64,000 nucleotides of DNA from Rhabdothermincola salaria (GTDB lineage: Bacteria; Actinomycetota; Acidimicrobiia; Acidimicrobiales; Acidimicrobilacustridaceae), in contig NZ_JAJQXW010000001.1 in assembly GCF_021246445.1 (NCBI RefSeq), positions 1,070,168 through 1,134,167 of the forward strand, given 5' to 3'. Each line of letters opens with the position of its first letter. The first letter of the stretch is position 1. Positions 5,262 to 51,049 of the stretch are shown here, piece by piece. Under the pieces are notes generated by a model. It searched no databases. It had not been told where the DNA came from and saw nothing but the letters and a program-made list of their open reading frames with translations. A program made the translations under genes and the position numbers.

Positions 5262-6817
5262 AGCAGGCCCTTCTCCCGGGACTCGCGGACCTCTCGGTTG
5301 AAGTCGTCGAAGTCGTCGGTGAAGTAGTGCGACCCGTCCTCGTCGGCGAGCACGTAGTACAACCAGTCGCCTTCGGCCGGGTTGAGAGCCGCCTCCATGG
5401 AGGCCTCCCCCGGGGAGCTGATCGGGGCGGGCGGGATGCCCGGGTAGCGGCGGGTGTTGTACGGCGAGTCGACCTCCAGCTGCGACTGCGTCAACGTGGG
5501 CAGGCGGTCGCCGAGGGCGTAGAGCACGGTGGCGTCGATGTCGAGACGCATGTCGTTCTTGATCCGGTTGTAGATCACCCGGGCGATCTTGGGGCGGTCT
5601 TCGTCTGTGCGAGCCTCGGCCTCGACCATGGAGGCCACGATGAGCGCCTCGTACGGGGTGATGGCCCGTTCGCCGGCGACGCCCTGGAGCTTGGCGGTGG
5701 CGTCGTAGAGCCCCTGGCGTTGGGCCGCGGCCTCGAAGGCGGCGACCATCTGGCCGAGCAGGACGGCCGGGTCGTCCGAGGTCGCCTTCTGCACGTCGTA
5801 GGTGGCGGGGAAGAGCACCCCTTCCGGGTTGCCCTCGACCTCGGGAAGACCGGGCACGCGCAGGAAGAACAGCGCCAGGTCGAGGGCCTCGGGTTCGACC
5901 GACGGGAAGGTGTCGAGGATGATCTGGCGGGTCTCGGACATCCAGAGCCCTTCGCGGAAGGTGACCCGTTCGATCTGTGGGGGCAGCGGACCGGCGTCGA
6001 GGACCTCGATCACGTCGCCCATGGCCATGTTCTGGCGCAGCTCGGTGTAGTCGCCGGCCCGGAACGGGCCTCCGCCCGCGAAGCGCAGGTACCACTCGAA
6101 CACGGTGGGGTTGCCGATGACCCCCTTCTCCTCGAGGAGGCGGGCGATGTCGGCGGTGGTCGCACCGGTCGGGATGGTGAGCTCCACCGGATCGCCGGGG
6201 TCGCCCGGGTCGATCTGCTGGCGCACCCACGCCCCGCCGGCGAGGACCCCGATGAGGAGCACCCCGACGAAGAGCAGGGCGGCGAACAGCCACCGGCTGC
6301 GAGTGGAGCCCTCGGGCCGGACGGCCACGAACTCCGCGCCCTCCCACGCCTCGTCGCCATACGCAGGATCGTCGGCGTACACCGGCTCCCCGGCGTAACC
6401 AGGCGACTCCTCCCCGTACCCGCCCTCGTCGGCGTACACCGGCTCCCCCGCGTACCCCGCCGCCTCGTACCCGCCCTCGTCGGCGTACACCGGCTCCCCC
6501 GCGTACCCCGCCGCCTCGTACCCGCCCTCGTCGACGTACACGGGCGCTTCGTCGGCGCCCTCGGGCCCGTCGGAGGCACCCCGGGTGGGGTCGTCGGACC
6601 AGAGATCGCCCGGAGCCCCCGGATCGGCCACGGCGTCGGCCTGGTCCTGGTCGTCGAAGAGGTGTCCGAGGTCCCAGTCGTCACCCTCGTCGGGGCGGTC
6701 GTGGTCGTGGGGGCCCTCGGGCGGGCGGGGGTCGGACACGTTGGGGCTCTCGGGGTGGGGAGGGGCCGTCAGGGGCCGGCGGACGGTGGGCGCTGGTCGG
6801 CACGCCCGTCGAGCCAC
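5258..6817 (-). CDS. mltG: endolytic murein transglycosylase MltG (YceG family) with repeat-containing N-terminal tail
   Basis: C-terminal YceG domain ([30 protein letters not shown]); single TM; N-terminal disordered region with 17-aa tandem repeats; start either 6817 (48-nt overlap with ruvX) or GTG at 6739. Confidence 0.8.
   Translation of the reverse strand: [519 protein letters not shown]
6365..6545. repeat. 51-nt tandem repeat (about 3.5 copies) inside mltG encoding [17 protein letters not shown] units
   Basis: Unit gtacccgccctcgtcggcgtacaccggctcccccgcgtaccccgccgcctc occurs twice perfectly with diverged flanking copies. Confidence 0.85.
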
Positions 6818-7209
6818 GACTGCAGGATCACGGCCGCAGCGACCTTGTCGACCACCTGGCGGCGGGCCTTGCCCTTGACCCCTCCCTCGCGGAGGAGACG
6901 GGTGGCCGTGACGGTGGTCAGACGTTCATCGTAGGTTTCGACCGGCAGGGAGGTGACGCGCCGGAGGTTCTCGACCTCGTCGAGCACCCCCTGGGCGGCC
7001 GGGCCGACGCCCCCGTCGAGCCCCAACGGGAGGCCCACGACGAGGACCTCGACCTCGGCCTCGTCGGCCAGGGCGAGGATGCGGCGGTGGTCGCGGCTCA
7101 CGTCGCCGCTACGCACCACCGTGTCGTAGGGCGAGGCCAGCACCCCACTCGAATCGCTGAGGGCCACACCGATCCGCTTGCTGCCGAGGTCGAGGCCGAG
7201 GGCTCGCAC
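6769..7209 (-). CDS. ruvX: RuvX/YqgF putative pre-16S rRNA nuclease (Holliday junction resolvase-like)
   Basis: 146 aa, MRALGLDLGSKRIGVALSD N-terminus typical of YqgF; conserved position downstream of alaS. Confidence 0.85.
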   Translation of the reverse strand: MRALGLDLGSKRIGVALSDSSGVLASPYDTVVRSGDVSRDHRRILALADEAEVEVLVVGLPLGLDGGVGPAAQGVLDEVENLRRVTSLPVETYDERLTTVTATRLLREGGVKGKARRQVVDKVAAAVILQSWLDGRADQRPPSAGP

Positions 7210-37009: not shown

Positions 37010-37083
37010 GCCCCTGTAGCTCAATCGGATAGAGCGGCCGGCTTCTACCCGGCAGGTTCCGGGTTCGATTCCTGGCGGGGGCA
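37010..37083 (+). tRNA. tRNA-Arg (anticodon TCT)
   Basis: Acceptor gcccctg/cgggggc, anticodon loop cttctac; CCA not encoded. Confidence 0.75.
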
Positions 37084-37157
37084 CACCGAGGCGCAGCCAT
37101 CCCCGCACCACCGGTTTCGTCCCGGCGGCTCGGTCCGCGTAAGCTCGCCAGTCCCAT

Positions 37158-37246
37158 GGTGGGCGTAGCTCAGCTCGGTTAGAGCGCCAGGTTGTGGCCC
37201 TGGAGGTCGGGGGTTCGAGTCCCCTCGCTCACCCCATGGAGGTGGT
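37158..37246 (+). tRNA. tRNA-His (anticodon GTG) with G-1
   Basis: Extra 5' G before acceptor gtgggcg/cgctcac, anticodon loop ttgtggc, CCA encoded. Confidence 0.75.
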
Positions 37247-37302
37247 GGCACCCACCGTTCGCGATGGGTGCCACCACCGCCACCGCAAGGACGTACACTC
37301 GA

Positions 37303-37377
37303 CAACCCACATGCGCCTCTAGCTCAATGGCAGAGCAACGGACTCTTAATCCGCAGGTTCTGGGTTCGAATCCCAGG
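37303..37377 (+). tRNA. tRNA-Lys (anticodon CTT)
   Basis: Acceptor gcgcctc/ggggcgt (two GU pairs), anticodon loop ctcttaa, T-loop ttcgaat, CCA encoded. Confidence 0.7.
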
Positions 37378-37480
37378 GGGCGTACCACCGAATCACCAGC
37401 GAGGCCCGGGCCCAGCGCCCGGGCCTCGCCGCGTTCTCGTCTCCGACACCGACCGGGCCCTGACGAGTACGGTGCCGCCG

Positions 37481-38278
37481 ATGCCGGAGGCTCCCCGTCC
37501 CCTCGAGCGCGTCGTCCTGGTCGCCGCCACCAACCGCAGCGGCAGCACGTTGCTGTGCCGTGCGCTCGCCGCGACCGGACGGCTCGGGGCACCCGCTGAA
37601 CCTCTGACCTTCCGCAACCTCCGGGAGAACCGCTCGGGCCTCGGTCCGGTGCATGTCAAGCCGAGAGCCCGGGTCGGGCAGCTGCGGCGCCGGCTCGCCG
37701 GCCGACCGGACTGGAGGGACCTGGGGCAGTCGGCCTTCACGTCGCGAACGGCGCGTCGGGTCCTCGACGGTGTGGCCGACCGGCACACGAGCGACGACGG
37801 TGTCCTCGCCCTCAAGGTGATGTGGAGCGACTACTCCGAACTCTTCGGCTCGCACGGGTTCGACGCCGGCTACTGGGAGCGACCGGTGAGCTGGGTGCGG
37901 ATCCGGCGCGACGACCGGCTCGGACAGGCGTTGTCGTGGAGCCGGGCGATCAGCACGGACCAGTGGACGGCGGCGATGGCCTCCCGGTCCGAGCCCACCT
38001 ACGACCGGTCGCAGATCGAACGCTGCCTCGAGCGCATCGAACACGAGGAGACCGGCTGGGACGGCTACTTCGCCGACCACGCCATCGAGCCCTTGACGGT
38101 GACCTACGAGGACCTCGACGCCGACTACGAGGGCACGGTTCGCACCGTCTTCGACCACCTGGGCGCAGCCGACGCGCCGCTTCCCCCACGGCTGCTCGAG
38201 CGGCAGGCCGACGACCTCACCGCCCAGTGGCGGGCCCGCTACCTGGCCGAGTCCGGCGGGAACGCCCCCGTGGCCTGA
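37481..38278 (+). CDS. Stf0-type sulfotransferase family protein
   Basis: VVLVAATNRSGSTLL PAPS-binding P-loop and overall similarity to Stf0 (trehalose 2-sulfotransferase) family; ATG at 37481 in-frame within track ORF 37268..38278. Confidence 0.65.
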   Translation: MPEAPRPLERVVLVAATNRSGSTLLCRALAATGRLGAPAEPLTFRNLRENRSGLGPVHVKPRARVGQLRRRLAGRPDWRDLGQSAFTSRTARRVLDGVADRHTSDDGVLALKVMWSDYSELFGSHGFDAGYWERPVSWVRIRRDDRLGQALSWSRAISTDQWTAAMASRSEPTYDRSQIERCLERIEHEETGWDGYFADHAIEPLTVTYEDLDADYEGTVRTVFDHLGAADAPLPPRLLERQADDLTAQWRARYLAESGGNAPVA

Positions 38279-38315
38279 CGACGACCCCCCACGACGTGCT
38301 AGGAACCGTCCCGGC

Positions 38316-39425
38316 ATGCGCGTCCTGTACCTCTCGGCGGCCTACCTGCCCCACGTCGGCGGCATCGAAGTGCTGCTCCACCAGATCTGCCGACAGCTGC
38401 GCGACCACGGCCACGCGGTGGAGATCGTGAGCGCCGACGCCCCCGCTCCCGACGAGGTCGACGGGGTGCGGGTCCACCGTCTCGACGTGCAGACGCCGAT
38501 GCGAGCACGGGACGTGCGCGGGCTCCATGCCCTGCACCGCCGCCTGCGTGAGGTCATGACGGCGTTCCGACCCGACGTGGTGCACTCCCACGACATGGGC
38601 GCCCTGCTCTGGCTCCACCAACGAGCAACCCGGAGCTCGCCGGTGCCGCTCGTGGTCACCGTGCACAACGTCATGACCCGGCACCTCCAGGGCGCCGCGG
38701 GTGCCCAGGTGCCGATGGGACAGATGCTCGAGAAGGCCGACGTGGTCACCGCGGTCTCCGAGCATGCCCTCGAGGACACCCTGTCGTACGTGCCAGCGCT
38801 CACCGGCCGCATCCGGTACCTGCCCAACGGGGTCCCGTCGCCCCCGGGCCGCGAGTCCGACGTGGTCGCCGACCCGCGACAGGTCGTCTTCGTGGGCCGC
38901 CTCACCGCACAGAAGGGCGTCGACGTCCTCCTCGACGCGATGGCACAGGTGGCGGCGGTCGCCCCGGATGTCCGCCTCCTCGTCGTCGGCGAGGGGCCCG
39001 ACGGCGCTGCGCTCCGGGCGGTCGCCTCCGACCTCGGCCTCGGCGGCACCGTGCGCTTCCTCGGGCGCACCGGCACCGCCACCGTGGCGGCCCTCATGGC
39101 CCGGAGCGCCCTCGTCGTCATGCCGTCGCGGTACGAGGGCCTGCCCCTCGTCGCCCTCGAAGCAGCATGGGCCGGTCGCCCGGTGCTGGGCACCCGGGTG
39201 CCGGGCCTGAGCGAGGCGGTGGTCGACGGTGGTACGGGCGTGCTGGTGGCGCCCGAGGACCCCTCGGCCCTGGCCCGGGCCATGGTCGATCTGCTGGCGG
39301 CGCCCGACCGCCGCCGCGAGCTCGGCCGGGCGGCCCGACGTCGCGCCGAACAGAAGTATGGCCTCGAAAGGTGCGTCGAGCGCTACGAGACGATCTACCG
39401 TCAGCTCGCCGTCCCGGCGCACTGA
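38316..39425 (+). CDS. GT4 family glycosyltransferase
   Basis: 369 aa GT-B fold; C-terminal EGLPLVALEAAWAGRPV motif (EX7E-like). Confidence 0.8.
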   Translation: MRVLYLSAAYLPHVGGIEVLLHQICRQLRDHGHAVEIVSADAPAPDEVDGVRVHRLDVQTPMRARDVRGLHALHRRLREVMTAFRPDVVHSHDMGALLWLHQRATRSSPVPLVVTVHNVMTRHLQGAAGAQVPMGQMLEKADVVTAVSEHALEDTLSYVPALTGRIRYLPNGVPSPPGRESDVVADPRQVVFVGRLTAQKGVDVLLDAMAQVAAVAPDVRLLVVGEGPDGAALRAVASDLGLGGTVRFLGRTGTATVAALMARSALVVMPSRYEGLPLVALEAAWAGRPVLGTRVPGLSEAVVDGGTGVLVAPEDPSALARAMVDLLAAPDRRRELGRAARRRAEQKYGLERCVERYETIYRQLAVPAH

Positions 39426-39446
39426 CCATCCGACCCAGGAGCACCG

Positions 39447-39884
39447 ATGCCCCAGCAGATCCGGATCGAGCCGGCGGTGAACCACGAGCGTCTCGACGAC
39501 GAGGTCATCGCCATCAACATCGAGAGCGGCGTGTACTTCGCCATGGACGACGCGGCGGCCGATTGCTGGACGGTCGCCGTCGACGGTGGCGGCATCGACG
39601 AGATGGTGGGGGTGCTCACGATCCTCTATGACGTCGACGAGGAGCGGGCTCGAGCCGACGCCGCTGCGTTCGTCGCCACGCTCGTGGACCAGCGTCTGGC
39701 CCGACTGGCCGGCGATCGTCCGGTTGCGATCGCGCTGCCCGACCCGCCGCCCTCCGGGCGCCGGCGCTACGCGCCACCCGAGCTCCAGGGCTTCGACGAC
39801 CTCGAGGAGCTCTTGCTCATCGACCCCATCCACGAGGTCGACGACGCCGGCTGGCCGCTCCCCGTCCAGGGCGATGGGGCCTGA
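39447..39884 (+). CDS. PqqD family protein (RiPP recognition element-type peptide chaperone)
   Basis: 145 aa; ...LDDEVIAINIESGVYFAMDDAAADCWTVAV...ILYDVDEERARADAAAFVATLVDQRL matches PqqD/RRE pattern; AGGAGC RBS. Confidence 0.7.
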   Translation: MPQQIRIEPAVNHERLDDEVIAINIESGVYFAMDDAAADCWTVAVDGGGIDEMVGVLTILYDVDEERARADAAAFVATLVDQRLARLAGDRPVAIALPDPPPSGRRRYAPPELQGFDDLEELLLIDPIHEVDDAGWPLPVQGDGA

Positions 39885-40929
39885 CGCCAGCGCGGCCCCG
39901 ACCCGTGGTCGCCCGGCCGCGGCCGCAGTCGACGAGTTCGTCGATGCCCTCGCCGAGTGCGTCGATCGGGCCGCGGGGGCCACCGCCGAGGTGGAGACAC
40001 GAGCACTCGATCTGGGCGGTCACGGTCTCGCCATCCGCATAGCGGGCCGGGGCCTGGCCGCGATCCTGGACCCGGCCCTCGCCCATGCCCACACCGCTGT
40101 CGAACGCCAGCCCGACCTCCGCATCGACTGCTGGGACCGAGCCGTCACCGGCGTCGCCCCGCCCTCACCGCCCTGGGCGCTGACCGACTTCCTGCCCACG
40201 GGTGCCGTCCGCGGTCACGCCGAGGACCGCGTCCGCGTCAGCTACGACCGGTGGATGCGCATGCTCACCGTCTACGACCGGGATCGGGGCCGAGCCTTCC
40301 TCCACGTCGCTGACGCCGACGACGTACCCGTCTGGGTGCAGCGATCCCCGATGCGCCAGCTCTTCGGCTGGTGGGCGGCCGACCACGGCATGGCCCTGCT
40401 GCACGCGGGAACCGTCGCCACCGACCACGGAGCGGTGGCGCTGGCCGGGGCCAGCGGTTCCGGCAAGTCGACCACGACCCTCACGTGCATGGCGGCGGGC
40501 ATGGGGTTCATGGGCGACGACGCCTGCCTGGTCGACTGGAACCCGGCCGCGACCGCCACCACCCTGTTCGGTCTGGCCAAGCTCGAGCCGGACGCCTTCG
40601 AGCGGATGGCCTCCGTGCGGCACCTCGCCGTCGGTGGCGACCCGTCGCAACCGTTGCTCGACCCGTCCGCCCACATCGTCCCGCACGCCCCCCTGCGGGC
40701 CGTGCTGCTGGTGTCGGTCGCCGACGACGGTGTGACATCACTCGAGGACGTGTCGCCGAGCGACGCCCTGCACACCCTCGTAATGGGGTCGCTCGACGAA
40801 GGTGGGGCCACCACCCTCACCGGGCTGCGACGGGTGGCCACCGAGTTTCCCTGCCGGCGCCTCCGCCTGGGCTCGGATCCGGCGGCCATCGTCGACGCGG
40901 TCGACGCAGCCGCCCGAGCGGGCCCGTGA
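39874..40929 (+). CDS. HPr kinase-related P-loop serine kinase-like protein
   Basis: ATG at 39874 (11-nt overlap with PqqD); Walker A ALAGASGSGKSTTTL resembling HprK C-terminal kinase domain; N-terminal part of track ORF 39586..40929 is read-through. Confidence 0.65.
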   Translation: MGPDASAAPTRGRPAAAAVDEFVDALAECVDRAAGATAEVETRALDLGGHGLAIRIAGRGLAAILDPALAHAHTAVERQPDLRIDCWDRAVTGVAPPSPPWALTDFLPTGAVRGHAEDRVRVSYDRWMRMLTVYDRDRGRAFLHVADADDVPVWVQRSPMRQLFGWWAADHGMALLHAGTVATDHGAVALAGASGSGKSTTTLTCMAAGMGFMGDDACLVDWNPAATATTLFGLAKLEPDAFERMASVRHLAVGGDPSQPLLDPSAHIVPHAPLRAVLLVSVADDGVTSLEDVSPSDALHTLVMGSLDEGGATTLTGLRRVATEFPCRRLRLGSDPAAIVDAVDAAARAGP

Positions 40930-41645
40930 CGGTCGCCCTGTCGGCCAGTGCGGTCAGCGTGGTGATGGCCGTGCGCGACGGCGAGCGCTACCTGGACGAG
41001 GCCCTCCGCAGCCTCCTCGACCAGACCTCACCCCCGGGCGAGATCGTCGTCGTCGATGACGGATCGACCGATGGGACCCCCGCCATCCTGGCCTCGTTCG
41101 GTCCGTCTCTGTCGGTCCACACCCGCCCACCGGAGGGGTTGGCACCAGCACTCAACCTCGGCGTCGACCGGGCCCGGCGGCCCCTGCTGACGTTCCTCGA
41201 CGCCGACGACGTGCTCACACCGACGTCGATCGAGCGCAGGGTCGCCCACCTCGCCGACCGCCCCGACCTCGACGCGGTGTTCGGACACGTCCAGCAGTTC
41301 GTCAGTCCGGACCTGGCGCCGGCAGATGCGGCTCGGTACCGGTTCGACGCGGCGCCCACCCCCGGGCGCCTGCTCTCCACCATGCTCGTCCACCGACCGG
41401 CGTTCGACCGGATCGGACCATTCGACCTCGCGCACACCCGGGCGCCGGGGCCGGACTGGCTCGCCCGCAGCATCACCGGAGGTCTCCGCAGCGCTGACGT
41501 CGACGACGTCGTGATCCGCCGTCGCCTGCACACCACCAACATGAGTCGCGCCGAAGCCCGTAGCGGGAACCGCCACCTGCTCGGCGTCGTGCGCGCGCAC
41601 CGGCGTCGACGAGCCGAGCAGGCGGCCGGCGAGGAGCAGGCATGA
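40926..41645 (+). CDS. GT2 family glycosyltransferase
   Basis: GTG at 40926 (GTGA overlap with kinase stop); VVMAVRDGERYLDEALRSLLDQT...VVVDDGSTDGT and DADD motif. Confidence 0.7.
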   Translation: MTVALSASAVSVVMAVRDGERYLDEALRSLLDQTSPPGEIVVVDDGSTDGTPAILASFGPSLSVHTRPPEGLAPALNLGVDRARRPLLTFLDADDVLTPTSIERRVAHLADRPDLDAVFGHVQQFVSPDLAPADAARYRFDAAPTPGRLLSTMLVHRPAFDRIGPFDLAHTRAPGPDWLARSITGGLRSADVDDVVIRRRLHTTNMSRAEARSGNRHLLGVVRAHRRRRAEQAAGEEQA

Positions 41646-43222
41646 ACGCCGACGAGATCGTCGCGGGCATCGATCCCCACCACCGCCAGATGCTGGTGGC
41701 GGCTCTCTGCCCGGAGCCCGAGGCCAGTGATGCGTGGCGGGCCTGGCGTGCCGCGGTCGACTTCGACGACATCGACGACGCCACCCAACGCCTCTTGCCG
41801 CTGGTCGCCCGGCGCCGCGGCGTGATCCCCGACGACGATCCGGTGCGCCGCCGGGTCCGTGGCCTCTACCGGCAGGCCTGGGTCCGCAACCACCGCCTCT
41901 GGCACCAGGCACTGCCCCCCATGGCCGCGTTCGAGGCCCGGGCCATCCCCACCCTGCTCATGAAGGGCGGTGCGCTGTTGCCCGTCTACGGGGGCGACTG
42001 GGGGGCCCGGCCGATGTACGACATCGACGTGCTGGTCCCCGACGAGCGCTTCGACGAGGCCGCCGACGAACTCACCTCGCTGGGCTGGACCCCCGAACAG
42101 GGCGAGCCCGTCGAATGGGTGGGCCAGCGCATGCGCCCCTTCCTCAACGGCTGGGGCTTCCAGTCGGGCGAGCACGGCCACCTCGACCTCCACCACCATG
42201 CGCTGGCCGGCTCGATGTGGACCCACGCCGACCGCGCCTTCTGGGAGGGCTCTGTCGTCATCGACGTCGCCGGCACCCGCCAGCGGGTCCTGCAACCCGC
42301 CGACCTGCTGGTGCACCTGCTCCTGCATGGCGTGCAGTTCGACAACAACCCGCCCGTGCAGTGGATCGCCGACGTGGTCCACGTCGCCCGGTCCACGCCG
42401 GTCGGCGTGCTGGCGCCGCGCTTCCTCGCCCAGGCCCGCACCCATGGCGCCCTCCGGGTCGCCGAGGCCGGCCTGGGAGCGGTGCTGGACCTCACCGGCG
42501 AACCCACGGTCGAGCCGATCCTGCAGGCCGTACGGGGCCAGAGCTCCTACCTCGAACGCCTCCGTCACCATCGGGGCCCGGCCGCGCGCCCCCTGCTCGA
42601 CCTCTCCCGCAACGCCACCGGAGGGGCGGGTCCCATCCGAGGGGCGCGCGACCTCGTCCACCGCCGCCTCGAGCTGCACCTCGTGGCCCATCCCACCGCC
42701 GCCCTGGCCCGGGCCGCATCGGGACGGTCAGCGACGGTCGGCCGCGCCCTGCGCCGAATCAGCGGACCGATCGCCCGAGTGCCTCGTCCCCCCGACCACG
42801 ACCTCGTCCTGCCCACCGACCTCGATCTCACTCAGCCGTCGACCCTCAACCGGTTCGGGGGCCCGGGGTGGTGGAAGTCCACACCGGAGGGCGCCGTGAC
42901 CATGGGTCGCGAGTCCTACCTCGTGCTGAGCCTTCCTCGCGCCGCCCACGGCCGGGCGCTGACCGTGCAGCTCGACGCCGCCAGCCTGGACGGGCCCAAG
43001 GCGGTCGAGGTGCTCGCCGACGACACCGTGGTCGCCCGGGCCGTCGTGGGCGATCAGCCCCAGACCGTCTTCGCGACCGTGGTGCCCCCGCTGGCCGGGC
43101 ACGCTCCGACACTCGACCTCGTCGTTCGGGTCGCACGACCGGGCCTGCGCCCTCGGCCGGCGGTGAACCTCCGGGTCCTGGGCGCCGGCATCGCCCTGGC
43201 ACCCAGTTCGCCAGACCGCTGA
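41642..43222 (+). CDS. nucleotidyltransferase family protein (NTP_transf_5-like) with extended C-terminal domain
   Basis: LLMKGGALLPVYGGDWGARPMYDIDVLVPDE signature of the uncharacterised nucleotidyltransferase family; ATGA overlap with GT2. Confidence 0.65.
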   Translation: MNADEIVAGIDPHHRQMLVAALCPEPEASDAWRAWRAAVDFDDIDDATQRLLPLVARRRGVIPDDDPVRRRVRGLYRQAWVRNHRLWHQALPPMAAFEARAIPTLLMKGGALLPVYGGDWGARPMYDIDVLVPDERFDEAADELTSLGWTPEQGEPVEWVGQRMRPFLNGWGFQSGEHGHLDLHHHALAGSMWTHADRAFWEGSVVIDVAGTRQRVLQPADLLVHLLLHGVQFDNNPPVQWIADVVHVARSTPVGVLAPRFLAQARTHGALRVAEAGLGAVLDLTGEPTVEPILQAVRGQSSYLERLRHHRGPAARPLLDLSRNATGGAGPIRGARDLVHRRLELHLVAHPTAALARAASGRSATVGRALRRISGPIARVPRPPDHDLVLPTDLDLTQPSTLNRFGGPGWWKSTPEGAVTMGRESYLVLSLPRAAHGRALTVQLDAASLDGPKAVEVLADDTVVARAVVGDQPQTVFATVVPPLAGHAPTLDLVVRVARPGLRPRPAVNLRVLGAGIALAPSSPDR

Positions 43223-43440
43223 CGACATCCCGGCCACGAGAGCTCCACGCCCCCGGCCCGCGCACCCGGCCCGCGCACCCGGCCCGCGCCGCCGCTCCCG
43301 ATCCCGGCGCACCGCCGCCCCGCAGGCCCGACAGGGGCCACGACGGTCCCCGATCCGGCCGGTGGCGCTCACTACGCTGACCGACACCTTCGAGGCTCGC
43401 CGGTGTCGGCGTCCGCCCCCCTCCGCGACTGGGAGACTTC

Positions 43441-45516
43441 GTGCAGCACGCCACCGACGTGGGCACCGACCCCGACGACGCTCTGGCCCGTAGCGAGACC
43501 CGCTTCCGTCGGGCGTTCTCGCATGCGCCGTTCGGGATGGTCGTGGAGTCGGCCGATGGGGTCCTGCTCGAGGTCAACGACGCCTTCGCGGCCATGCTCG
43601 GTCGGCACCCTCAGAGCCTCATCGGCTGTCGCGACGACGAGTTGGTCGTCGACGACGACCCCGCTCAGGTCCTGGCCTGGACCATCAACGGCGAACCCGA
43701 CGTGGTCGTCACCGATCGCCGCTATCGCCACGCCGACGGACACGTCGTGCCGGCCCGCTGCACCAGCCGCATGGAGCGCGACACCCAGGGTCGGATCGAC
43801 GGCCGGCTCACCCACGTCGCCGACCTCACCCGGCTACGGGCCGCCGAGGACGCGCTGGCCACCAGCGAGGCCCGCTTCCGTCGGGCGTTCGACGAGTCGC
43901 CCATCGGCATGGGCTTGTCCTCCGGCGACGGGCGCCTGCTGTGGGTGAACGATTCGTTCTGCGTCTTGCTCGACCGCACGTGGGCCGAGGTGGTCGGGCG
44001 CCGAACGGAGGAGTTCATCCATCCCGACGACGTTCGCGTGGCCTCACGCACGACCCGCCGACTGATCAGCGGCGAGACCCCGAGAGCCGAGTGCGAGATG
44101 CGCTACGTGCGCCCCGACGGGTCCCAGGTCTGGGCCAGGTTGTCGATGTCGACGCTGTCGGATCCCGACGACGACGAGCCATCGCTGGTGTTGGCCCAGG
44201 TGCTCGACATCACCGCGGCCCGCGAGGCCGAGGCCCGCCTGGCCCACCAGGCCAGCCACGATGCCCTCACCGGCCTCCCCAACCGGATGCTCCTCCTCGA
44301 CCGGCTCGGCCAAGCCCTCTTCCGGCGGGACCGGCTCGGCCACGAGGTCGTGGTGCTGTTCCTCGACCTCGACGACTTCAAGATCGTCAACGACGGGCTG
44401 GGTCACGCCGCCGGCGACGAGTTCCTCGTCGAAGCGGCCCGTCGGCTGCGCCAGTGCGTGCGCCCCACCGACACCGTCGCCCGCCTCGGGGGCGACGAGT
44501 TCGTGATGGTCTGCGAGATCGAACGGGTCCACCAGGTCGCCGCGCTGTGCGATCGGGTGGCCTCCGCGCTCGGAACTCCGTTCGACCTCGACGGTCGGTC
44601 GCTCTCGATGAGCGCCAGCATCGGGGTCGTGGTCGGCGACGACATCCACTCCCCCGCCGAACTGCTCCGCGACGCCGACGTGGCCATGTACCGGTCCAAG
44701 GCGGACGGTCGGGGCCGGTCGACGCTGTTCACCGAAGGCCTCCGAGCCGAGGCCGTCGAACGCCTCGAGCAGGAGGCCGACCTGCGGGTGGCCCTGCGGG
44801 AAGGCCAGCTGGCCGTGCACTACCAGCCCGTGGTCTCCTGCACCGACGGCTCGGTGCACGGGGTCGAGGCGCTCGTGCGCTGGCACCACCCCGAACGGGG
44901 ACTGCTCCTTCCGGGCGACTTCCTGCCCGCGGCCGAGCGCAGCGGGATGGTGGTCGAGCTCGGCGCGTTCGTGCTCACCACGGCATGCCGCCAGCTGGGG
45001 GCATGGCAGGCCGAGGGTCGACACCTCACCGTGAGCATCAACGTCTCACCTCGCCAGCTCCTCGACGGCAACGTCGTCGACCAGGTGCTGAACCAGTGCG
45101 CCGCCGCCGGCGCCGACCCAGAGGGCCTCATCCTGGAGCTGACCGAGAACGCCCTCATCGAGACGCTCAGCTCGGCCGGAGAGCGCCTCCGGCCCCTGCG
45201 CCGGGCGGGTGTGGCCGTGGCGCTCGACGACTTCGGCACCGGCTACAGCTCACTGCAGTACCTGCGAGACCTGCCCGTCGACCTCGTGAAGATCGATCGC
45301 ACCTTCGTGCGGGGGTTGGGGTCCGAGGACGACGGTGCCCTCGCCGAGGCCATAGTCCGGCTCGGGGCCGCACTCGACCTGACCACCGTCGCCGAAGGCA
45401 TCGAGGATCCCGCTCAGCTCGAGCGGCTGCGCGCCATGGGCTGCGGCTACGTGCAGGGGTACCTGATCGGTCGTCCTGCGCCCGTCGAGGAGCTCGATCT
45501 CACGCCCCGCTGGTAG
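43441..45516 (+). CDS. PAS-PAS-GGDEF-EAL signalling protein (diguanylate cyclase/phosphodiesterase)
   Basis: Two PAS-like segments, GGDEF ([10 protein letters not shown]), EAL ([19 protein letters not shown]) motifs; GTG start. Confidence 0.9.
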
Positions 45517-45558: not shown

Positions 45559-45600
45559 TCTCGGATCGTCGTGATCAGCGACCGCCCAGGGGGCGTCGCG

Positions 45601-45830
45601 TCACTTCTTGGCCGGAGCCTTCTTGGCCGGAGCCTTCTTGGCCGGAGCCTTCTTGGCCGGAGCCTTCTTGGCCGGAGCCTTCTTGGCCGCGGTCTTCTTG
45701 GCCGGAGCCTTCTTGGCCGCGGTCTTCTTGGCCGGAGCCTTCTTGGCCGCGGTCTTCTTGGCCGGAGCCTTCTTGGCCGCGGTCTTCTTCGCCGCGGTCT
45801 TCTTGGCCGCGGCCTTCTTCGCCGGCTTCC
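45601..45830. repeat. 15-nt tandem repeat (cttcttggccggagc and variants, about 15 copies) encoding the KKAPA tail of HU
   Basis: Direct inspection of nt 45601-45830. Confidence 0.9.
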
Positions 45831-46104
45831 CGGTGGCCACCGTGTCCTTCAGCGACTTGAGCGGGGTGATGCGAACGGCCTTCTTGGCCGGCACCTTGAC
45901 CGCCGCGCCCGTCTGGGGGTTGCGAGCCATGCGGGCCCCACGCTGCACCCGGGCGAACTTGGCGAAGCCGGTCAGCACGACCTGCTCACCGCCGGCCACT
46001 GTGTCGGTGATCGTGCCGATGGCCTCGTTCAAGACCGCCTCGACCTCGGTGCGGTCCTTGTCGAGCCGCACGGCGATCGCGGCGGCCAGCTCTCGTTTGT
46101 TCAC
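45601..46104 (-). CDS. hup: HU family nucleoid protein with Lys/Ala/Pro-rich C-terminal repeat tail (Hlp/HupB-like)
   Basis: HU fold [10 protein letters not shown]...[21 protein letters not shown] then [10 protein letters not shown] repeats; GTG at 46104 with GGAGA RBS; track start 46239 is read-through. Confidence 0.85.
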
Positions 46105-46331
46105 GCTGTCTCCTCGTTCGGACTGGTCCCCGAGATCGGGGTCATCGATGGGTGAACGACCCAAAGCATGACGCAGTTTCGCCACTCGGGCGCGGCAATC
46201 ACCAGCAGAGCTCAAGACCTCAGCCAGAGAGGACCCCAACCCTGACGCCTCGCCGGGGCCATGAGCCCCCTCATCATCCGGCCACCGGCCACCCTCCAGA
46301 AGGGTCGACGACCCTCCCCTCGGGCCCGCGG

Positions 46332-47363
46332 TCAGACGGTGAGGACGACCTTGCCGAACTGCTCACCGTCGAGCATGCGGGCGAAGCCGGCGCGGGCCTC
46401 GGCCAACGGGCGCACCGAGTCGATCAAGGGCCGCACCCCGGTCGCGTCACAGAACGAGATGAGCCGTTCCAGCTCGGCGCGCGTGCCCATCGTCGAGCCG
46501 ATGACCGACCGCTGGAGGAAGAAGACCTGGGCGAGGTCGGCACTCGGATCGTTGCCGCTGGTGGCCCCCGCCACGACCAACGTCCCTCCCGGACGGAGAG
46601 AGCGCTGTGAATGGCTCCACGTGGCCGCCCCGACCGTCTCCATGACCGCGTCCACCTTGGCGGGTAGCCGCTCGCCGGACTCGAACGCGCGGTGCGCCCC
46701 GAGCTCGAGGGCCCGCTCCCCCTTCCCCGGATCTCGGCTGGTGACCCAGACCCGCAGCCCGGCGGCCCGGGCCAGCAGGACCAGAGCCGTCGCCACCCCA
46801 CCACCCGCCCCCTGGACCAGCACGGTGTCGCCCGGACGGAGGCCGCCACGGGTGAACAGCATGCGGTACGCGGTGAGGTAGGCCGTCGGCAGGCAGGCGG
46901 CCTCCTCCCAGGACAGGGACGGGGGCTTGGGCACGAGGTTCCGACGAGGGACGGCCACCCGCTCGGCCAGCGTCCCCGGATGGCGTTCCGACAGCAGGCT
47001 GCGGCGAGGATCGAGCGTCTCGTCCCCGCCCCCGGCGTCGGGGTCCCCGATCACGGCGTGCACCACGACCTCGTTGCCGTCCGGGTCGACGCCGGCCCCG
47101 TCGCAACCCAGGATCATCGGGAGCTGCTCGTCGCGCAGACCCACGCCCTGCAGGCTCCAGAGATCGTGGTGGTTCACGGCCACGGCCTCGAGCTCGACCA
47201 CCACCCACCCCTCGGGAACCTCGGGCTCGGGGCGGTCGCCCACCTCGAGGGCGGCGAGAGGGTCGTCGGCATCGAAGCGGGCGGCGGTGACAGCGAGCAC
47301 GAGAACGTCTCCATCAAGTCGACGGTGGGTCGCAACGAGTCTGACATCGCCCGGCGGGCGCAC
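46332..47363 (-). CDS. zinc-type alcohol dehydrogenase / quinone oxidoreductase (MDR superfamily)
   Basis: 343 aa; Rossmann [11 protein letters not shown]; start uncertain. Confidence 0.7.
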
Positions 47364-47477
47364 GATCAGGTCCCCGCGGTCGTCACCGGTTCGACGACGT
47401 ACCCCCGCGCGAGGCCGACGTACCCGCCCCGGATCGCGTCGACCACGGACGAGCCGGCCCCCACGGGCCCGAACGGT

Positions 47478-48326
47478 TCAGATGACCCCGACGGCCAGCG
47501 GTGGGTTCTCGGATTGGGCCACACCGCCTCGCACCTCTTCGGTGAGGGCGTAGGTGGTGAAGCCGGCCTCGCCCACCGGGAAGGCGGCCACGGTGGGAGC
47601 ACTGCCCAACACCCCGAGGGAGATGACCCGCTCGTCCTCGATGCCCCAGAGCTGGTAGGTGCGGTCCTCGGGCAGAGAAGGCAGCGACCCGAGCAGGAAG
47701 CCGGTGCCGTCGGGGAGCACGACCACGGTGGCGGTCGCGTCGCCCCCTTCGGGCGGGGCGAGCGAGACCTTGGTGGCCTCGGGGTCGGCCATGGCCTGAC
47801 CGGCCGCTCGTTGCAGGTCGATGGCGGCCACCTCACGGCTCATGTCGTCGAGGCGATCCTCTTGGCGGGCCACCACGATGCCGAGCACGAGGATCACCGC
47901 GGCGGCCACGCTCACGGCCGCCACGAGGGTGCGAGTCACGACCCGGCGGGAACGACCCGACAGCGGCACCACCTCGGCGTCACCGTTGCTCGTGGACTCG
48001 GCCGTGACCGGTTCGGGGCTCGACGCCGCCGGCGTCGTCGTGCCTCGGCGTCGGGCGACGTCGAGCTCCGCGGGGCTGAGGCGCATGGCCGGCGCAGCAT
48101 CGTCGAGCGCGTCGACGATGCGGTCCCACACCCCCTCGGGGGCGCGTGACCCTCCACCGGCCATCCACGACGCGACCTCGAGGTGACCGGCCAGCTCGTC
48201 GCGGCAGCGCGGGCAGACCGCCAGATGGGCCTCGACGAGGCGGCGCTCGTCGGGGTCGACGGCATCGAGGGCGTAGGCGCCCAGGAGCTCTTCGATCTCG
48301 GCCACGGGGATATCTGGTCCGCTCAT
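47478..48326 (-). CDS. anti-sigma factor (zinc-finger anti-sigma N-domain plus RskA-like C-domain)
   Basis: HLAVCPRCRDELAGHLE zinc motif, single TM, C-terminal YQLWGIEDERVISLGVL RskA-like domain; ATGA overlap with sigma gene. Confidence 0.75.
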   Translation of the reverse strand: MSGPDIPVAEIEELLGAYALDAVDPDERRLVEAHLAVCPRCRDELAGHLEVASWMAGGGSRAPEGVWDRIVDALDDAAPAMRLSPAELDVARRRGTTTPAASSPEPVTAESTSNGDAEVVPLSGRSRRVVTRTLVAAVSVAAAVILVLGIVVARQEDRLDDMSREVAAIDLQRAAGQAMADPEATKVSLAPPEGGDATATVVVLPDGTGFLLGSLPSLPEDRTYQLWGIEDERVISLGVLGSAPTVAAFPVGEAGFTTYALTEEVRGGVAQSENPPLAVGVI

Positions 48327-48955
48327 CGCGCCACCTCGAGGTCGGACGGGTCGAGCATGCCCCGCATCTTCTTGAGGCCCGATCGGATCCGGCTCTTCAC
48401 GGTCCCCTCCGGCTCGTCCAGCATGGCGGCCACTTCGCGGTAGGTGTGCCCGCCCAGGTAGGCGAGCTGGATGGCCCGTCGTTCGTTCTGGTGGAGCTGG
48501 GCCATGGCCACCTTGACCCGCTCGGCGACGGCGAGGTCGAGGACCTCGAGCTCGAGGTCGTAGCCCGCCTCCGCGGTGCGCTGGGCGTCGCGCTCCTCGC
48601 GTCGGCGACGAGCTCCCTCCGAGCGCAACAGGTCGACGGCCCGGCCGTGCCCCTGGGCGAGGAGGTACGAGCGCAGGGCGCCCCGCTCGGGGTCGAACTT
48701 GTCGGGGTCGTTCCAGAGGCGCAGGAACACCTCCTGGACGACCTCCTCGGCCAGCGTGGGCTCACCGAGGAGCCGCCGGGCGAGCGCGAAGACGGCGCCG
48801 GCGTGACGGCGGTAGGCCTCGGCGAGCGCCTGCTCGTCGAAGCGGCTGATGGCGATCACCAAGACGGCGTCGCTGGAGGTCGACAACGGGTCCGTGGGCA
48901 TGGTCGCTCGTTCTTCGGAGCCGTGGGAGCCCTCGGATGAGGTCTCTTCGGTCAC
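48323..48955 (-). CDS. ECF sigma-70 family RNA polymerase sigma factor (SigK-like)
   Basis: Region 2 QEVFLRLW, region 4 HTYREVAAMLDEPEGTVKSRI; start possibly internal ATG at 48901. Confidence 0.8.
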   Translation of the reverse strand: MTEETSSEGSHGSEERATMPTDPLSTSSDAVLVIAISRFDEQALAEAYRRHAGAVFALARRLLGEPTLAEEVVQEVFLRLWNDPDKFDPERGALRSYLLAQGHGRAVDLLRSEGARRRREERDAQRTAEAGYDLELEVLDLAVAERVKVAMAQLHQNERRAIQLAYLGGHTYREVAAMLDEPEGTVKSRIRSGLKKMRGMLDPSDLEVAR

Positions 48956-50355
48956 AGGGGTTCCCGGTCGAAGCAGCTCACGACCTCGACGTGGTGGGTG
49001 TGGGGGAAGAGGTCCACGACCACGGCCTCGACCAGGCGGTAGCCCTCCTCGGCGAGCAGGGCGACGTCGCGCCCCGCCGAGGCGACGTCGCAGCTCACGA
49101 GCACCAGCCGAGCGGCACCGGTGCCGGCGAGCACCTCCACGCCACGGCGCCCCAGGCCCGAACGGGCCGGGTCGGCCACGACGACGTCGGCCCGAGGCGC
49201 CCGGAAGCGCTCGACGGCCGAACCGACCACCCGGACGGGCAGGCCGCTGAGGTTGTGGCGGGCGTCGGCCACCGAGGAGCGGTTGCGCTCCACCGCCAGG
49301 CCCCGCCAGCCGCTCGCGCCGGTGGGCCCGGCGGGGTCGAGGAGGGCCCCGCTGAACAGACCCACCCCGCAGTAGGCGTCGACGAGCGTCGCCGGACCGT
49401 CGCCTCCTCCCGGGGCGGGGTCACCACCGGTCGACAGCACGTCGGCGGTCATCTCGCGCACGACGTCGACCAGCGCACGGGCGCCATCGGCCCGGGTCTG
49501 AAAGAACGAGCCCGCCGAGATCCGCCAGCGACGACCGGCCAGCTCCTCGTGGATCCAGGCCCGCCGACCGGCGGCCAGCTCGTCGGCGCCGACCACCACG
49601 ACATCGTCGGGCAGGCTCACCGCCGTCGCGGTCGGTCGGACGAGGGCCAGGCGCTCCCCGGTGGACGCGCCGACCCGCAGCACCACCTCGTCGGCCTCCC
49701 CGAAGCGGCCCTCGGCCACCAGCTCGTCGAGCAGCGGATGGGCCACCACACAATGGTCGAGCGCCACCACGTCGTGGCTGGCGAGAGCCCGCAACCCCGC
49801 CCGGCCGTCGGTGACGGCGAGGCGCATCGTGGTGCGGAACGCCTCCTCGGCCAGGGCCGGACCGGCGCGCACCTCGGGCGCGGGGACGCGGCCCAGCCGA
49901 CGAAGGCCGTCACGGACCATCTCCACCTTGGCGTCGCGTTGGTGGTCCGGGTCGAGCAGGGCCAGGTCGCACCCACCGCAGCCGTCGTCGACGTGCGCGC
50001 AGTGGGGGGCTCGGCGCCCGGGGGACGCCTCCACCACCTCGACGGTCTCGGCCCGGTCGACACCCTTCGAGGTGGAGGTGAGCCGCACCCTGACGCGCTC
50101 GCCCGGATAGGCCCCCTCGACCAGCACCACCTTGCCCTCGGGCCGACGGGCCAGCGCCACCCCCCCGGCCACCAACCGCTCGGCGGTGACCACGAACGAC
50201 TCGCCACCGGTGCCCGGCACCGCGCCGGGCGCCGCCACGGCCGCGGACGGAACGTCGCCGGGGGTGAGGGGGTCAGGGGGCAGGGCCACCTCGGCAGCGT
50301 AGGCGGGTAGGGTCGATCGGCCCGCGCCCCTCTCCGCCGCCCAGAGGCAACCCAT
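48952..50355 (-). CDS. 23S rRNA (uracil-5-)-methyltransferase RumA/RlmD-like (TRAM plus class I SAM MTase)
   Basis: Cys cluster CAHVDDGCGGCD, SAM motif DAYCGVGLFS; 467-aa C-terminal part of track ORF 48952..50784; start uncertain (50355 ATG overlaps the rpe ATG on the opposite strand). Confidence 0.7.
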   Translation of the reverse strand: MGCLWAAERGAGRSTLPAYAAEVALPPDPLTPGDVPSAAVAAPGAVPGTGGESFVVTAERLVAGGVALARRPEGKVVLVEGAYPGERVRVRLTSTSKGVDRAETVEVVEASPGRRAPHCAHVDDGCGGCDLALLDPDHQRDAKVEMVRDGLRRLGRVPAPEVRAGPALAEEAFRTTMRLAVTDGRAGLRALASHDVVALDHCVVAHPLLDELVAEGRFGEADEVVLRVGASTGERLALVRPTATAVSLPDDVVVVGADELAAGRRAWIHEELAGRRWRISAGSFFQTRADGARALVDVVREMTADVLSTGGDPAPGGGDGPATLVDAYCGVGLFSGALLDPAGPTGASGWRGLAVERNRSSVADARHNLSGLPVRVVGSAVERFRAPRADVVVADPARSGLGRRGVEVLAGTGAARLVLVSCDVASAGRDVALLAEEGYRLVEAVVVDLFPHTHHVEVVSCFDREPL

Positions 50356-51049
50356 GACCGACTTCCCCTCCCCCCGCCCCGTCGAGATCGTGCCTTCGGT
50401 CCTCCCAGCCGACTTCGCCCACCTCGGCGACGCCTGCCTCGACCTCGAGAAGGCCGGGGTCGACCGCATCCAATGGGACGTCATGGACGGCAACTTCGTG
50501 CCCAACCTCACCTTCGGCGCCGACGTGATCGCCGCCACGCGTCCGCTGGTGAGCATCCCCTTCGAGGCCCACCTCATGGTCGAGGAGCCGACCTGGATCC
50601 TCGACGCGATGGTCGACGCCGGGTGCCGGCTGCTCATCGTGCACGCCGAGGCGTGCCGCCACCTGCACCGCACGCTCGGGCACATCCAGGAGCTGGGCGC
50701 CGCCGCCGCGGTCGCCCTCAACCCGGCCACCCCCGTCCAGGACGTGGCCCACGTCCTCGACCTGGTGGAGATGGTCCTGGTCATGACGGTGAACCCCGGC
50801 TTCGGAGGACAGGCCTACATCGCCACCATGGAGCCCAAGATCGCCGAGCTGCGCACGCTCGTCGCCGAGGGCGGCCACGACGTCGACATCGAGGTCGACG
50901 GCGGCATCGGCCCGGCGACCATCGCGGGGGCCGCGGGGGCGGGCGCCAACGTGCTCGTCGCCGGCAGCTCGCTCTTCCGCGATCCCGAAGGCCTCGGGCA
51001 CGCCACCGCCGAGCTGCGGGAGCTGGCCGTCGCCGCCCAGCGCAGCTGA
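50354..51049 (+). CDS. rpe: ribulose-phosphate 3-epimerase
   Basis: 231 aa; PSVLPADFAHLGD, metal-binding His/Asp motifs. Confidence 0.85.
   Translation: MTDFPSPRPVEIVPSVLPADFAHLGDACLDLEKAGVDRIQWDVMDGNFVPNLTFGADVIAATRPLVSIPFEAHLMVEEPTWILDAMVDAGCRLLIVHAEACRHLHRTLGHIQELGAAAAVALNPATPVQDVAHVLDLVEMVLVMTVNPGFGGQAYIATMEPKIAELRTLVAEGGHDVDIEVDGGIGPATIAGAAGAGANVLVAGSSLFRDPEGLGHATAELRELAVAAQRS

Follow-up and report, generated by a model that had tools for sequence, protein, structure and literature searches.

In a 64-kb stretch of DNA from Rhabdothermincola salaria (Acidimicrobiia), analysed at its full length and called the window below, a cassette of six co-directional, partly overlapping genes occupies positions 37481-43222 of the + strand (Table 1). 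The genes encode, in order, a Stf0-type sulfotransferase, a GT4 glycosyltransferase, a PqqD-family protein of the RRE type (recognition element of peptides ribosomally synthesised and then post-translationally modified, RiPPs), a P-loop kinase, a GT2 glycosyltransferase and an NTP_transf_5 nucleotidyltransferase. Reading frames were picked by translations and by third-position GC, which was used because the DNA has about 72% GC. The start of the kinase gene overlaps the end of the RRE gene by 11 nt (ATGGGGCCTGA), and the other junctions are GTGA and ATGA overlaps and spacers of 37 nt and 21 nt. This gene structure bears out the junctions given in an original prediction for this DNA, whose domain calls were also right, with Pfam supporting five genes and other evidence the HprK-like kinase. 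None of the six proteins has a transmembrane-like segment. The base composition of the cassette genes (0.70-0.74 GC, against 0.712 for the window) shows no anomaly, and consensus scans for promoters and terminators, which are uninformative in an actinobacterium of 72% GC, matched nothing.

Table 1. Genes and sequence features of the cassette, in positions of the window.
Feature	Position	Strand	Evidence and place in the module
Stf0-family sulfotransferase (3'-phosphoadenosine 5'-phosphosulfate, PAPS, type), 265 aa	37481-38278	+	Pfam PF09037 E 1.5e-27; accessory
GT4 (GT-B) glycosyltransferase, 369 aa	38316-39425	+	Pfam Glycos_transf_1 1e-38, Glyco_transf_4 2.7e-26; frequent accessory
PqqD-family RRE protein with C-terminal tail, 145 aa	39447-39884	+	Pfam PqqD 2.9e-11, aa 19-84; core
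Leader-like motif Y108-A-P-P111-E-L113 (YxxPxL) in RRE protein	39768-39785	+	
Conserved C-terminal block F116-DDLEELLLIDPIHEVDDAGW-P137 of RRE protein	39792-39857	+	
P-loop kinase, HprK/PEPCK fold, 351 aa	39874-40929	+	core
Kinase active-site elements: Walker A G192-T200 and D215-D216 pair	40447-40521	+	
GT2 (GT-A) glycosyltransferase, 239 aa, D92-A-D94 motif	40926-41645	+	Pfam Glycos_transf_2 1.4e-25; core
NTP_transf_5 nucleotidyltransferase (aa 48-279, D127-I-D129)	41642-43222	+	Pfam PF14907 3.9e-28; usual member

The new point of the cassette is its RRE protein, which carries a leader-like motif and an invariant tail. The open reading frame (ORF) starting at 39447 matches the PqqD profile as predicted, and the best structural matches of its fold are the lasso peptide B1 proteins TbiB1 and TfuB1, so that the B1-type RRE of a lasso cluster is present in the window. 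The original prediction named the family correctly and missed the conserved C-terminal tail; the Pfam match covers only the N-terminal part of the 145 aa. All PqqD proteins linked to such cassettes have about 135-160 aa, against about 90, and the tail is absent from the true lasso B1 proteins of two relatives, the loci L010 and L013. Among 86 homologues, the RRE domain (aa 1-85) is followed by a variable Pro/Ala-rich linker and then by the leader-like motif YxxPx[LVI], with Y108 in 82, P111 in 79 and V, L or I at 113 in 84 of them. After this motif come [FY]116-DDLEELLLL, D126-P-I-H-E-V-D-x-A-G-W-P137 and a short variable end; L122, D126, P127, H129, E130, V131, G135, W136 and P137 are identical in all 86. 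When the tail alone was searched with phmmer against 1.84 billion representatives, 1056 clusters were found at E <= 1e-3, mostly 135-160-aa proteins with the motif at the C-terminus. About 20 short tail-only ORFs (45-75 aa) are also among these matches. We rejected them as evidence for a free precursor: at least one (P0305, compared with the full-length P0404) is a fragment, one cluster-mate (P0403) is unrelated, and most are singletons on short contigs; P0275 (on a 27-kb contig) and P0373/P0405 may be real genes. Besides, the RRE-tail gene is split in L002 (9549-9981), where a frameshift leaves an intact tail in another frame, and in L011 (9479-9991) the RRE part alone is detected; both cases are either assembly errors or real pseudogenisation.

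RREs bind leaders in a cleft between a strand (aa 29-34 here) and the third helix. In the AlphaFold2 model of the RRE protein, built from the 86-sequence alignment, the predicted local distance difference test (pLDDT) is 94-98 to residue 110 and 86 for residues 111-120; a short strand is predicted at 114-116 and order up to about residue 118, while residues 121-145 (pLDDT about 58) are predicted to be flexible. We ran mean-field direct coupling analysis (DCA) on 258 non-redundant RRE-tail sequences (effective number 222), and among its seven strongest long-range couplings are four between RRE and tail (D71-Y108, Q82-G115, D62-R105 and A37-P111), with M33-L113, V29-E120 and A32-L119 at ranks 22-30. 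On the RRE side of these pairs, the secondary structure of the model assigns D71 and Q82 to the third helix, D62 to a loop, A37 to the start of the first helix, and V29, A32 and M33 to the strand aa 29-34. The putative pairing of the tail strand was drawn from pLDDT, DSSP and DCA taken together. Coevolution and the AlphaFold2 model thus both set the leader-like segment against the RRE, which suggests that the RRE holds its own tail. In lasso peptides, YxxPxL is the leader motif at positions -17 to -12, and the leaders are bound by B1 RREs (PMC6784204, PMC10368454). The segment KRPYEAPKL of a lasso precursor in the classical cluster L004 is close to the consensus R-P-Y-x-A/P-P-x-L of the tail.

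To see how far the gene set recurs, loci were collected by kinase-anchored and RRE-anchored searches, among them a metagenome scan with the PqqD alignment, which gave at least 510 confirmed relatives (80 loci kept), and module genes were counted with hidden Markov models (HMMs) built from the cassette families. At least 88 independent loci carry the module. For the 28 loci of 8 kb or more, the kinase is found in 26, GT2 in 27, NTP_transf_5 in 22, GT4 in 19 and Stf0 in 6, while the lasso cyclase HMM matches in one (L010) and the HMM of the B2 leader protease, a narrow one built from two sequences, in two (L010 and L013), leaving 26 of 28 with neither. Directly downstream of the RRE gene lies the kinase gene in 41 of the 53 loci with enough sequence and GT2 in 11 more. 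The contexts of kinase homologues (30-63% identity to the window kinase) show the order GT4 - PqqD - kinase - GT2 - NTP_transf_5; the GT4 gene is usually directly upstream of the RRE gene, and the Stf0 gene is often at either end of the cassette. The flanks differ and are unrelated between loci, and in 13 long loci no extra gene family or small ORF is common to three or more, except one short-chain-dehydrogenase-like flanking ORF (three loci). The core of the module is therefore the RRE protein, the kinase and GT2, with NTP_transf_5 as the usual member and GT4 and Stf0 optional. The original prediction read the cassette as one lacking lasso parts; since 26 of the 28 longer loci have neither cyclase nor B2, we regard it as a self-contained module and not as an incomplete lasso cluster.

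Several loci show variants of this arrangement. Natural fusions join GT2 to NTP_transf_5 (L001, 11023-13302) and GT4 to the RRE-tail protein (P0326, 542 aa); a tail-kinase "fusion", P0327, looks like a frameshift artefact at an overlapping stop and start. The cassettes of L014 and L015 have neighbours of cyanobacterial type (photosystem reaction-centre protein, DUF1651, Tll0287-like) and an adjacent rve integrase fragment, their kinase is 54% identical to that of the window, and L014 has a broken Stf0 gene, suggesting that the cassette moved horizontally from one phylum to another. Transposases flank the cassette of L016. A genome scan with the kinase alignment was also tried and set aside, as it picked up a generic P-loop pattern and the matches listed were the unrelated loci L004 and L005, the first of which later served as positive control.

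For the kinase, no Pfam match was obtained at E <= 0.01, Hpr_kinase_C scoring just 15.1 bits, although weak matches to Hpr_kinase_C occur in all 25 aligned homologues. The NCBIfam models HprK_rel_B (TIGR04355; E 3.3e-10, 39.6 bits) and HprK_rel_A (TIGR04352; E 3.4e-7, 29.7 bits) match below their cut-offs of 200 bits, with alignments confined to the P-loop region aa 169-237. At the sequence level the protein falls outside the HPr kinase/phosphorylase (HPrK/P) family, as defined by the Pfam PF07475 gathering threshold and NCBIfam TIGR00679. It does possess the C-terminal P-loop catalytic fold of HPrK/P with the His, Walker A and DD signature: H177, GxxGxGKST192-200 and D215-D216 are invariant in 25 homologues, the best PDB sequence match of the family profile is the Lactobacillus casei HPrK/P 1jb1 (E 9.5e-6), and the alignment pairs the His, the P-loop and the DD pair. 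The HprK-like fold that had been predicted is therefore present. The lasso kinase PsmK requires D158/D159, the equivalent of this DD pair (PMC6993621). The family HMM also picks up the kinase of the classical lasso cluster L004. Over its whole length, the kinase model is more similar to phosphoenolpyruvate carboxykinase (PEPCK) than to HPrK/P, and there is a weak NCBIfam match to the phosphonate kinase FomB.

The other enzymes could be placed more directly. The nucleotidyltransferase belongs to PF14907 (99.1 bits against a gathering threshold of 31.2, with the DxD motif D127-I-D129), has an extra C-terminal region of about 240 aa common only to L001, L002 and L013, and has no sequence relatives in PDB. 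Its lasso counterpart PsmN is an uncharacterised NTP transferase for which the pair D134/D136 is required (PMC6993621). The GT2 protein keeps its DxD motif (D92-A-D94) and contains no transmembrane-like segment. The Stf0-type protein reaches the Pfam family level (97.1 bits against 22), and its sole PDB sequence match is 1tex, the mycobacterial Stf0 trehalose 2-sulfotransferase (E 3.8e-14). It scores 104.5 bits with the NCBIfam equivalog of trehalose 2-sulfotransferase (NF047724), for which the cut-off is 400, and is for this reason not an orthologue of that enzyme. The mycobacterial Stf0 shares the Pfam family with the window enzyme and differs from it in genomic partners, the sulfolipid-1 pathway genes not being near the window cassette. 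The RRE protein, the kinase and the nucleotidyltransferase all stay below the cut-off of every curated NCBIfam model. An identity as anti-phage defence was considered and rejected: the Pfam match "GT4-conflict" is a generic GT4 cross-match, and PADLOC defence models match none of the six proteins.

The kinship with phosphorylated lasso clusters that the original prediction proposed is supported by the B1-type folds of the RRE protein, by the match of the kinase HMM to the L004 kinase and by two relatives embedded among lasso genes. The L010 cassette has an HprK-like pseudo-kinase on one side and on the other a full lasso set (B2, ABC exporter, B1, cyclase and a second NTP_transf_5), and in L013 it adjoins B1, B2 and a sulfotransferase-HprK fusion. 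These lines of evidence support a lasso ancestry. The pseudo-kinase (L010, 62-877, - strand) has a degenerate P-loop, GPVHQAAS replacing GxxGxGKS, and the fusion (L013, 16913-18682, - strand) is a Sulfotransfer_1-HprK protein of 589 aa. Lasso precursors of L010 and L013 were not found by tblastx or motif scan of the available locus sequence. The spacer upstream of the lasso B1 gene of L013 (15850-16000) carries a short direct duplication, with ...GRWLIAGV... twice in different frames, and no convincing precursor ORF. An Asn-synthase gene adjoining the cassette of L062 was not counted as a lasso cyclase, its GATase domain being intact, and was left unclassified.

In the window itself, the cyclase, B2, exporter and precursor of a lasso cluster are missing. 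With tblastn, the cyclase, B2 and ABC exporter of L010 gave no match in the 64 kb at E <= 1e-3, and neither the cyclase HMM, which detects both L010 and the proteobacterial L004, nor the B2 HMM found anything there, in agreement with the earlier claim that cyclase and leader protease are lacking. The intergenic gaps of the cassette contain no coding-like small ORF. A lasso-precursor pattern (leader with YxxPxL ... T-2, core with G/A/S/C1 and D/E7-9) found none among all small ORFs of the window, while the same pattern finds the precursor of L004 (...KRPYEAPKL...ETQ|GSFAGAFEADFPSFDPSFFQMS). The claim that no precursor is visible thus stands for a separate small ORF and does not stand for the RRE protein, which carries its own YxxPx[LVI] and an invariant peptide. 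The L004 precursor, in a Planktotalea metagenome-assembled genome, is an unannotated gene (6736-6966, MDRSMTKRTRPEEQKRPYEAPKLTSLDVSETQ|GSFAGAFEADFPSFDPSFFQMS) directly upstream of the cyclase, and it ends in Ser, as expected of a kinase-bearing cluster.

One alternative takes up the original prediction, in which the substrate could be a small peptide encoded elsewhere: tailoring in trans of a lasso peptide whose precursor, cyclase and protease lie in another part of the R. salaria genome. The embedding of the L010 and L013 cassettes, interleaved with B1 and B2 and, in L010, with cyclase and ABC exporter, agrees with this, and so does the literature, in which lasso clusters can include an HPr-kinase homologue, a nucleotidyltransferase and a sulfotransferase, as the prediction had also stated (PMC8498205; gene list in PMC10040529). 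We nevertheless consider it improbable. Cyclase and B2 are missing within the available sequence of nearly all longer loci; the lasso sets of L010 and L013 bring their own short, tail-less B1 and further come with a separate NTP_transf_5 in L010 and with a sulfotransferase-kinase fusion in L013; and the groove of the RRE appears from the model to be filled by its own tail. A search with the L010 cyclase gave 128 relatives, none named R. salaria or on the 2,005,197-bp contig of the cassette, a weak negative as the entries are partly named.

An ordinary operon for decoration of a cell-surface glycan or glycolipid, with the PqqD-like and kinase-like genes as incidental or purely structural members, would account for two glycosyltransferases and a sugar-type sulfotransferase, and polysaccharide-type genes do flank some relatives: a Wzx-type flippase and GlcNAc 2-epimerase in L003, PMT_2 and ABC-2 in L007, a pyruvyl transferase in L009, and others in L016. 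Even so, this explanation is very unlikely. Within the module, the genes kept most constantly are those of the kinase and the RRE-tail protein, GT4 and Stf0 being optional. The cassette lacks an initiating polyprenyl-phosphate transferase, a flippase, a polymerase and any transmembrane segment; the membrane-associated initiation, flipping or export and polymerisation of a polysaccharide or glycolipid locus are missing from it; and the window flanks are unrelated genes (tRNAs, a luciferase-like monooxygenase, a GGDEF-EAL protein). The original prediction had named, as a circumstance telling against itself, that homologous blocks would always sit in polysaccharide or lipid loci with known substrates. 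This is not the case, since L003, L007, L009 and L016 are so placed, others are not, and none has a known substrate.

Our preferred reading, held tentatively, is that the cassette is an autonomous offshoot of lasso tailoring machinery whose chaperone presents its own tail to the enzymes as cargo. It starts from the gene content and order, the folds, the recurrence of the module, the conserved tail and its coevolution with the RRE, and it adds docking in cis (rather than between two copies), an order of reactions, an acceptor and a kind of product, which we infer. The cytoplasmic module would have descended from the machinery of phosphorylated lasso peptides and would operate with neither lasso cyclase nor leader protease. 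Its organiser would be the lasso-B1-type RRE fused to its own "leader", YxxPx[LVI] at aa 108-113 docking back into the peptide groove and leaving the invariant DPIHEVDxAGWP exposed, so that a self-loaded chaperone could hand this peptide to the co-translated enzymes. The exposed peptide would most likely serve as acceptor or scaffold, or alternatively as the means by which the enzymes are recruited and activated. By homology, the HprK/PEPCK-fold kinase would phosphorylate first, NTP_transf_5 would then act on the phosphorylated intermediate, GT2 and GT4 would add or extend sugars, and the Stf0-type enzyme would sulfate a sugar. For the step of NTP_transf_5 the model is pseudomycoidin, where PsmK phosphorylates the C-terminal Ser and PsmN is needed for the hexose on that phosphate (PMC8498205, PMC6993621, PMC11912497). 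A more specific version, which we hold to be rather unlikely, is that DPIHEVDxAGWP is phosphorylated on His, Asp or Glu and then receives a phosphate-linked sulfated glycan; this would be a new RiPP-like class with recognition element, leader and core in one polypeptide, the product being a self-primed carrier or scaffold or the precursor of a conserved small product, and many soil, mat and marine bacteria would make it.

Several points weigh against the tail as cargo. Between DPIHEV and the C-terminus, Ser, Thr and Tyr are all missing from 90 of 259 tails, and the tail of the window has none after Y108. Ser-O-phosphorylation, to our knowledge the only chemistry shown for lasso kinases, thus cannot be the conserved reaction of the tail; chemistry on His, Asp, Glu or Trp would be needed, for which we know of no precedent in the enzyme family of the kinase. 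With neither a protease nor an exporter in the cassette, a product borne by the tail would remain attached to a cytoplasmic protein of 145 aa. Since, over its full length, the model of the kinase is closer to PEPCK than to HPrK/P, the acceptor may be a small molecule. Phylogeny can inflate the DCA, which used about 220 effective sequences, and the method cannot tell contacts in cis from those in trans. Furthermore, four loci contain a second, diverged RRE-tail gene, divergently transcribed in L009 (7664-8089, - strand), L017 (13836-14381, - strand) and L022 (5398-6339, - strand) and on the same strand in L073 (16032-16697), with its own kinase-like partner and, in most, NTP_transf_5-like or GT genes. 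In L017 and L022, GT4 and GT2 stand beside one of the two RRE-tail genes, the kinase and NTP_transf_5 beside the other, and such different subsets fit the role of an adaptor better than that of a single substrate.

As an adaptor or activator, the self-leadered RRE would be a subunit with its leader always in place, which turns on or brings together the kinase, the nucleotidyltransferase and the glycosyltransferases, the invariant tail being a docking element or one that completes an active site, and the acceptor (a leaderless peptide, a sugar, a glycolipid or a small metabolite) would come from elsewhere. The many tails with no hydroxyl residue agree with this, as does the characterised relative of Stf0, which sulfates trehalose according to its NCBIfam name. 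The weak match of the kinase to FomB points the same way. There is also biochemical precedent, as B1 is reported to accelerate the lasso kinase BsfK and the RRE to form part of the B2 protease pocket (PMC10368454). On the other hand, the window cassette has no polysaccharide neighbours, and no conserved candidate acceptor gene accompanies the module in the 13 long loci. Besides, the peptide that an RRE delivers is, in every characterised system that we know of, the one joined to its bound leader; by default, then, the cargo would be whatever segment comes after the leader-like motif. Taken by itself the adaptor role is somewhat doubtful; the paralogues of L017 and L022, the PEPCK-like fold of the kinase and the polysaccharide flanks in some loci make it nearly as likely as tail cargo presented in cis.

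Each enzyme of the cassette comes from a known family, and the set as a whole follows lasso-tailoring logic. Compared with the phosphorylated or phosphoglycosylated lasso clusters (paeninodin pade, pseudomycoidin psm and Bradymonas bsf), the window shares the B1-type RRE, the HPr-kinase homologue with His, P-loop and DD pair and the PsmN-like NTP transferase; in those clusters the RRE recognises YxxPxL and B1 cooperates with the kinase (PMC8498205, PMC6993621, PMC10368454). The window cassette differs in having no cyclase, B2, separate precursor or exporter, in the fusion of the leader-like motif to the RRE, followed by an invariant peptide with no conserved Ser, and in GT2 as a core member with GT4 and Stf0 added, and with the NCBIfam models of lasso and HprK-related families its RRE and kinase stay far under the cut-offs. 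Lasso clusters of Sphingomonadales type likewise combine a PqqD protein with sulfotransferases, a glycosyltransferase and a nucleotidyltransferase (gene list in PMC10040529; L004 is a kinase-bearing example), but they keep the Asn-synthase-like cyclase, B2 and, as in L004, a small Ser-ending precursor, none of which is in the window. The families of HprK-related kinases A and B and the SynChlorMet proteins ScmC/ScmD also pair an HprK-like P-loop protein with a PqqD-like one in uncharacterised cassettes. Homologues of the window kinase carry Pfam PF27840 (ScmC), while the ScmC and ScmD models (TIGR04249 and TIGR04248) score 11.7 and 14.4 bits against cut-offs of 125 and 100. Leader- or precursor-fused RiPP enzymes include engineered leader-fused lanthipeptide synthetases and cyanobactin heterocyclases and the natural borosin methyltransferase-precursor fusions. 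They have a recognition or enzyme domain and its cognate peptide on one polypeptide, with recognition in cis, as the window RRE would; here it is a stand-alone RRE, not a catalytic domain, that is naturally fused to a leader-like peptide. Searches of the literature by tail motif, by Pfam and NCBIfam identifier and by combination of genes returned no description of the module, in line with the earlier statement that the combination is not a described system.

When new ribosomal peptide pathways are sought, RREs serve as the chief handle that does not depend on class, and they are presumed to bind a separately encoded leader. A natural RRE with its own leader-like motif would, if true, break this assumption and would account for "orphan" PqqD genes seen by precursor-hunting tools. 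The module is widespread, as more than 1000 clusters at 50% identity carry the tail motif, it is found in many metagenomes, mostly at a distance from lasso genes, and it is compact, with five or six soluble proteins. It could clarify the role of NTP_transf_5, a question since pseudomycoidin, and whether HprK-type kinases use non-Ser acceptors.

Directly upstream of the cassette, positions 37010-37387 hold genes for tRNA-Arg (TCT), tRNA-His (GTG) and tRNA-Lys (CTT), and a GC-rich hairpin (GGCCCGGGCC...GGCCCGGGCC-like, 37403-37425) lies after tRNA-Lys, 56 nt before the first cassette gene. A genomic island at the tRNA-Lys gene was rejected: the 3' end of the tRNA is not repeated in an att-like manner, and the composition shows no anomaly. 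Other neighbours in the window are a luciferase-like monooxygenase, an enoyl-CoA hydratase, a major facilitator superfamily (MFS) transporter and a TauD-family dioxygenase. Further downstream, the ORFs 45571-46155, 46692-48149, 48146-48940 and 48952-50784 have no Pfam match at E <= 1e-4, and some of them may not be real genes, given competing frames. Directly downstream of the cassette, 43441-45516 encodes a PAS-PAS-GGDEF-EAL protein (cyclic-di-GMP turnover), which is not kept beside the cassette in other loci, and the 218-nt spacer before this gene contains three tandem copies of a 13-nt unit (CCCGGCCCGCGCA) at 43252-43289.

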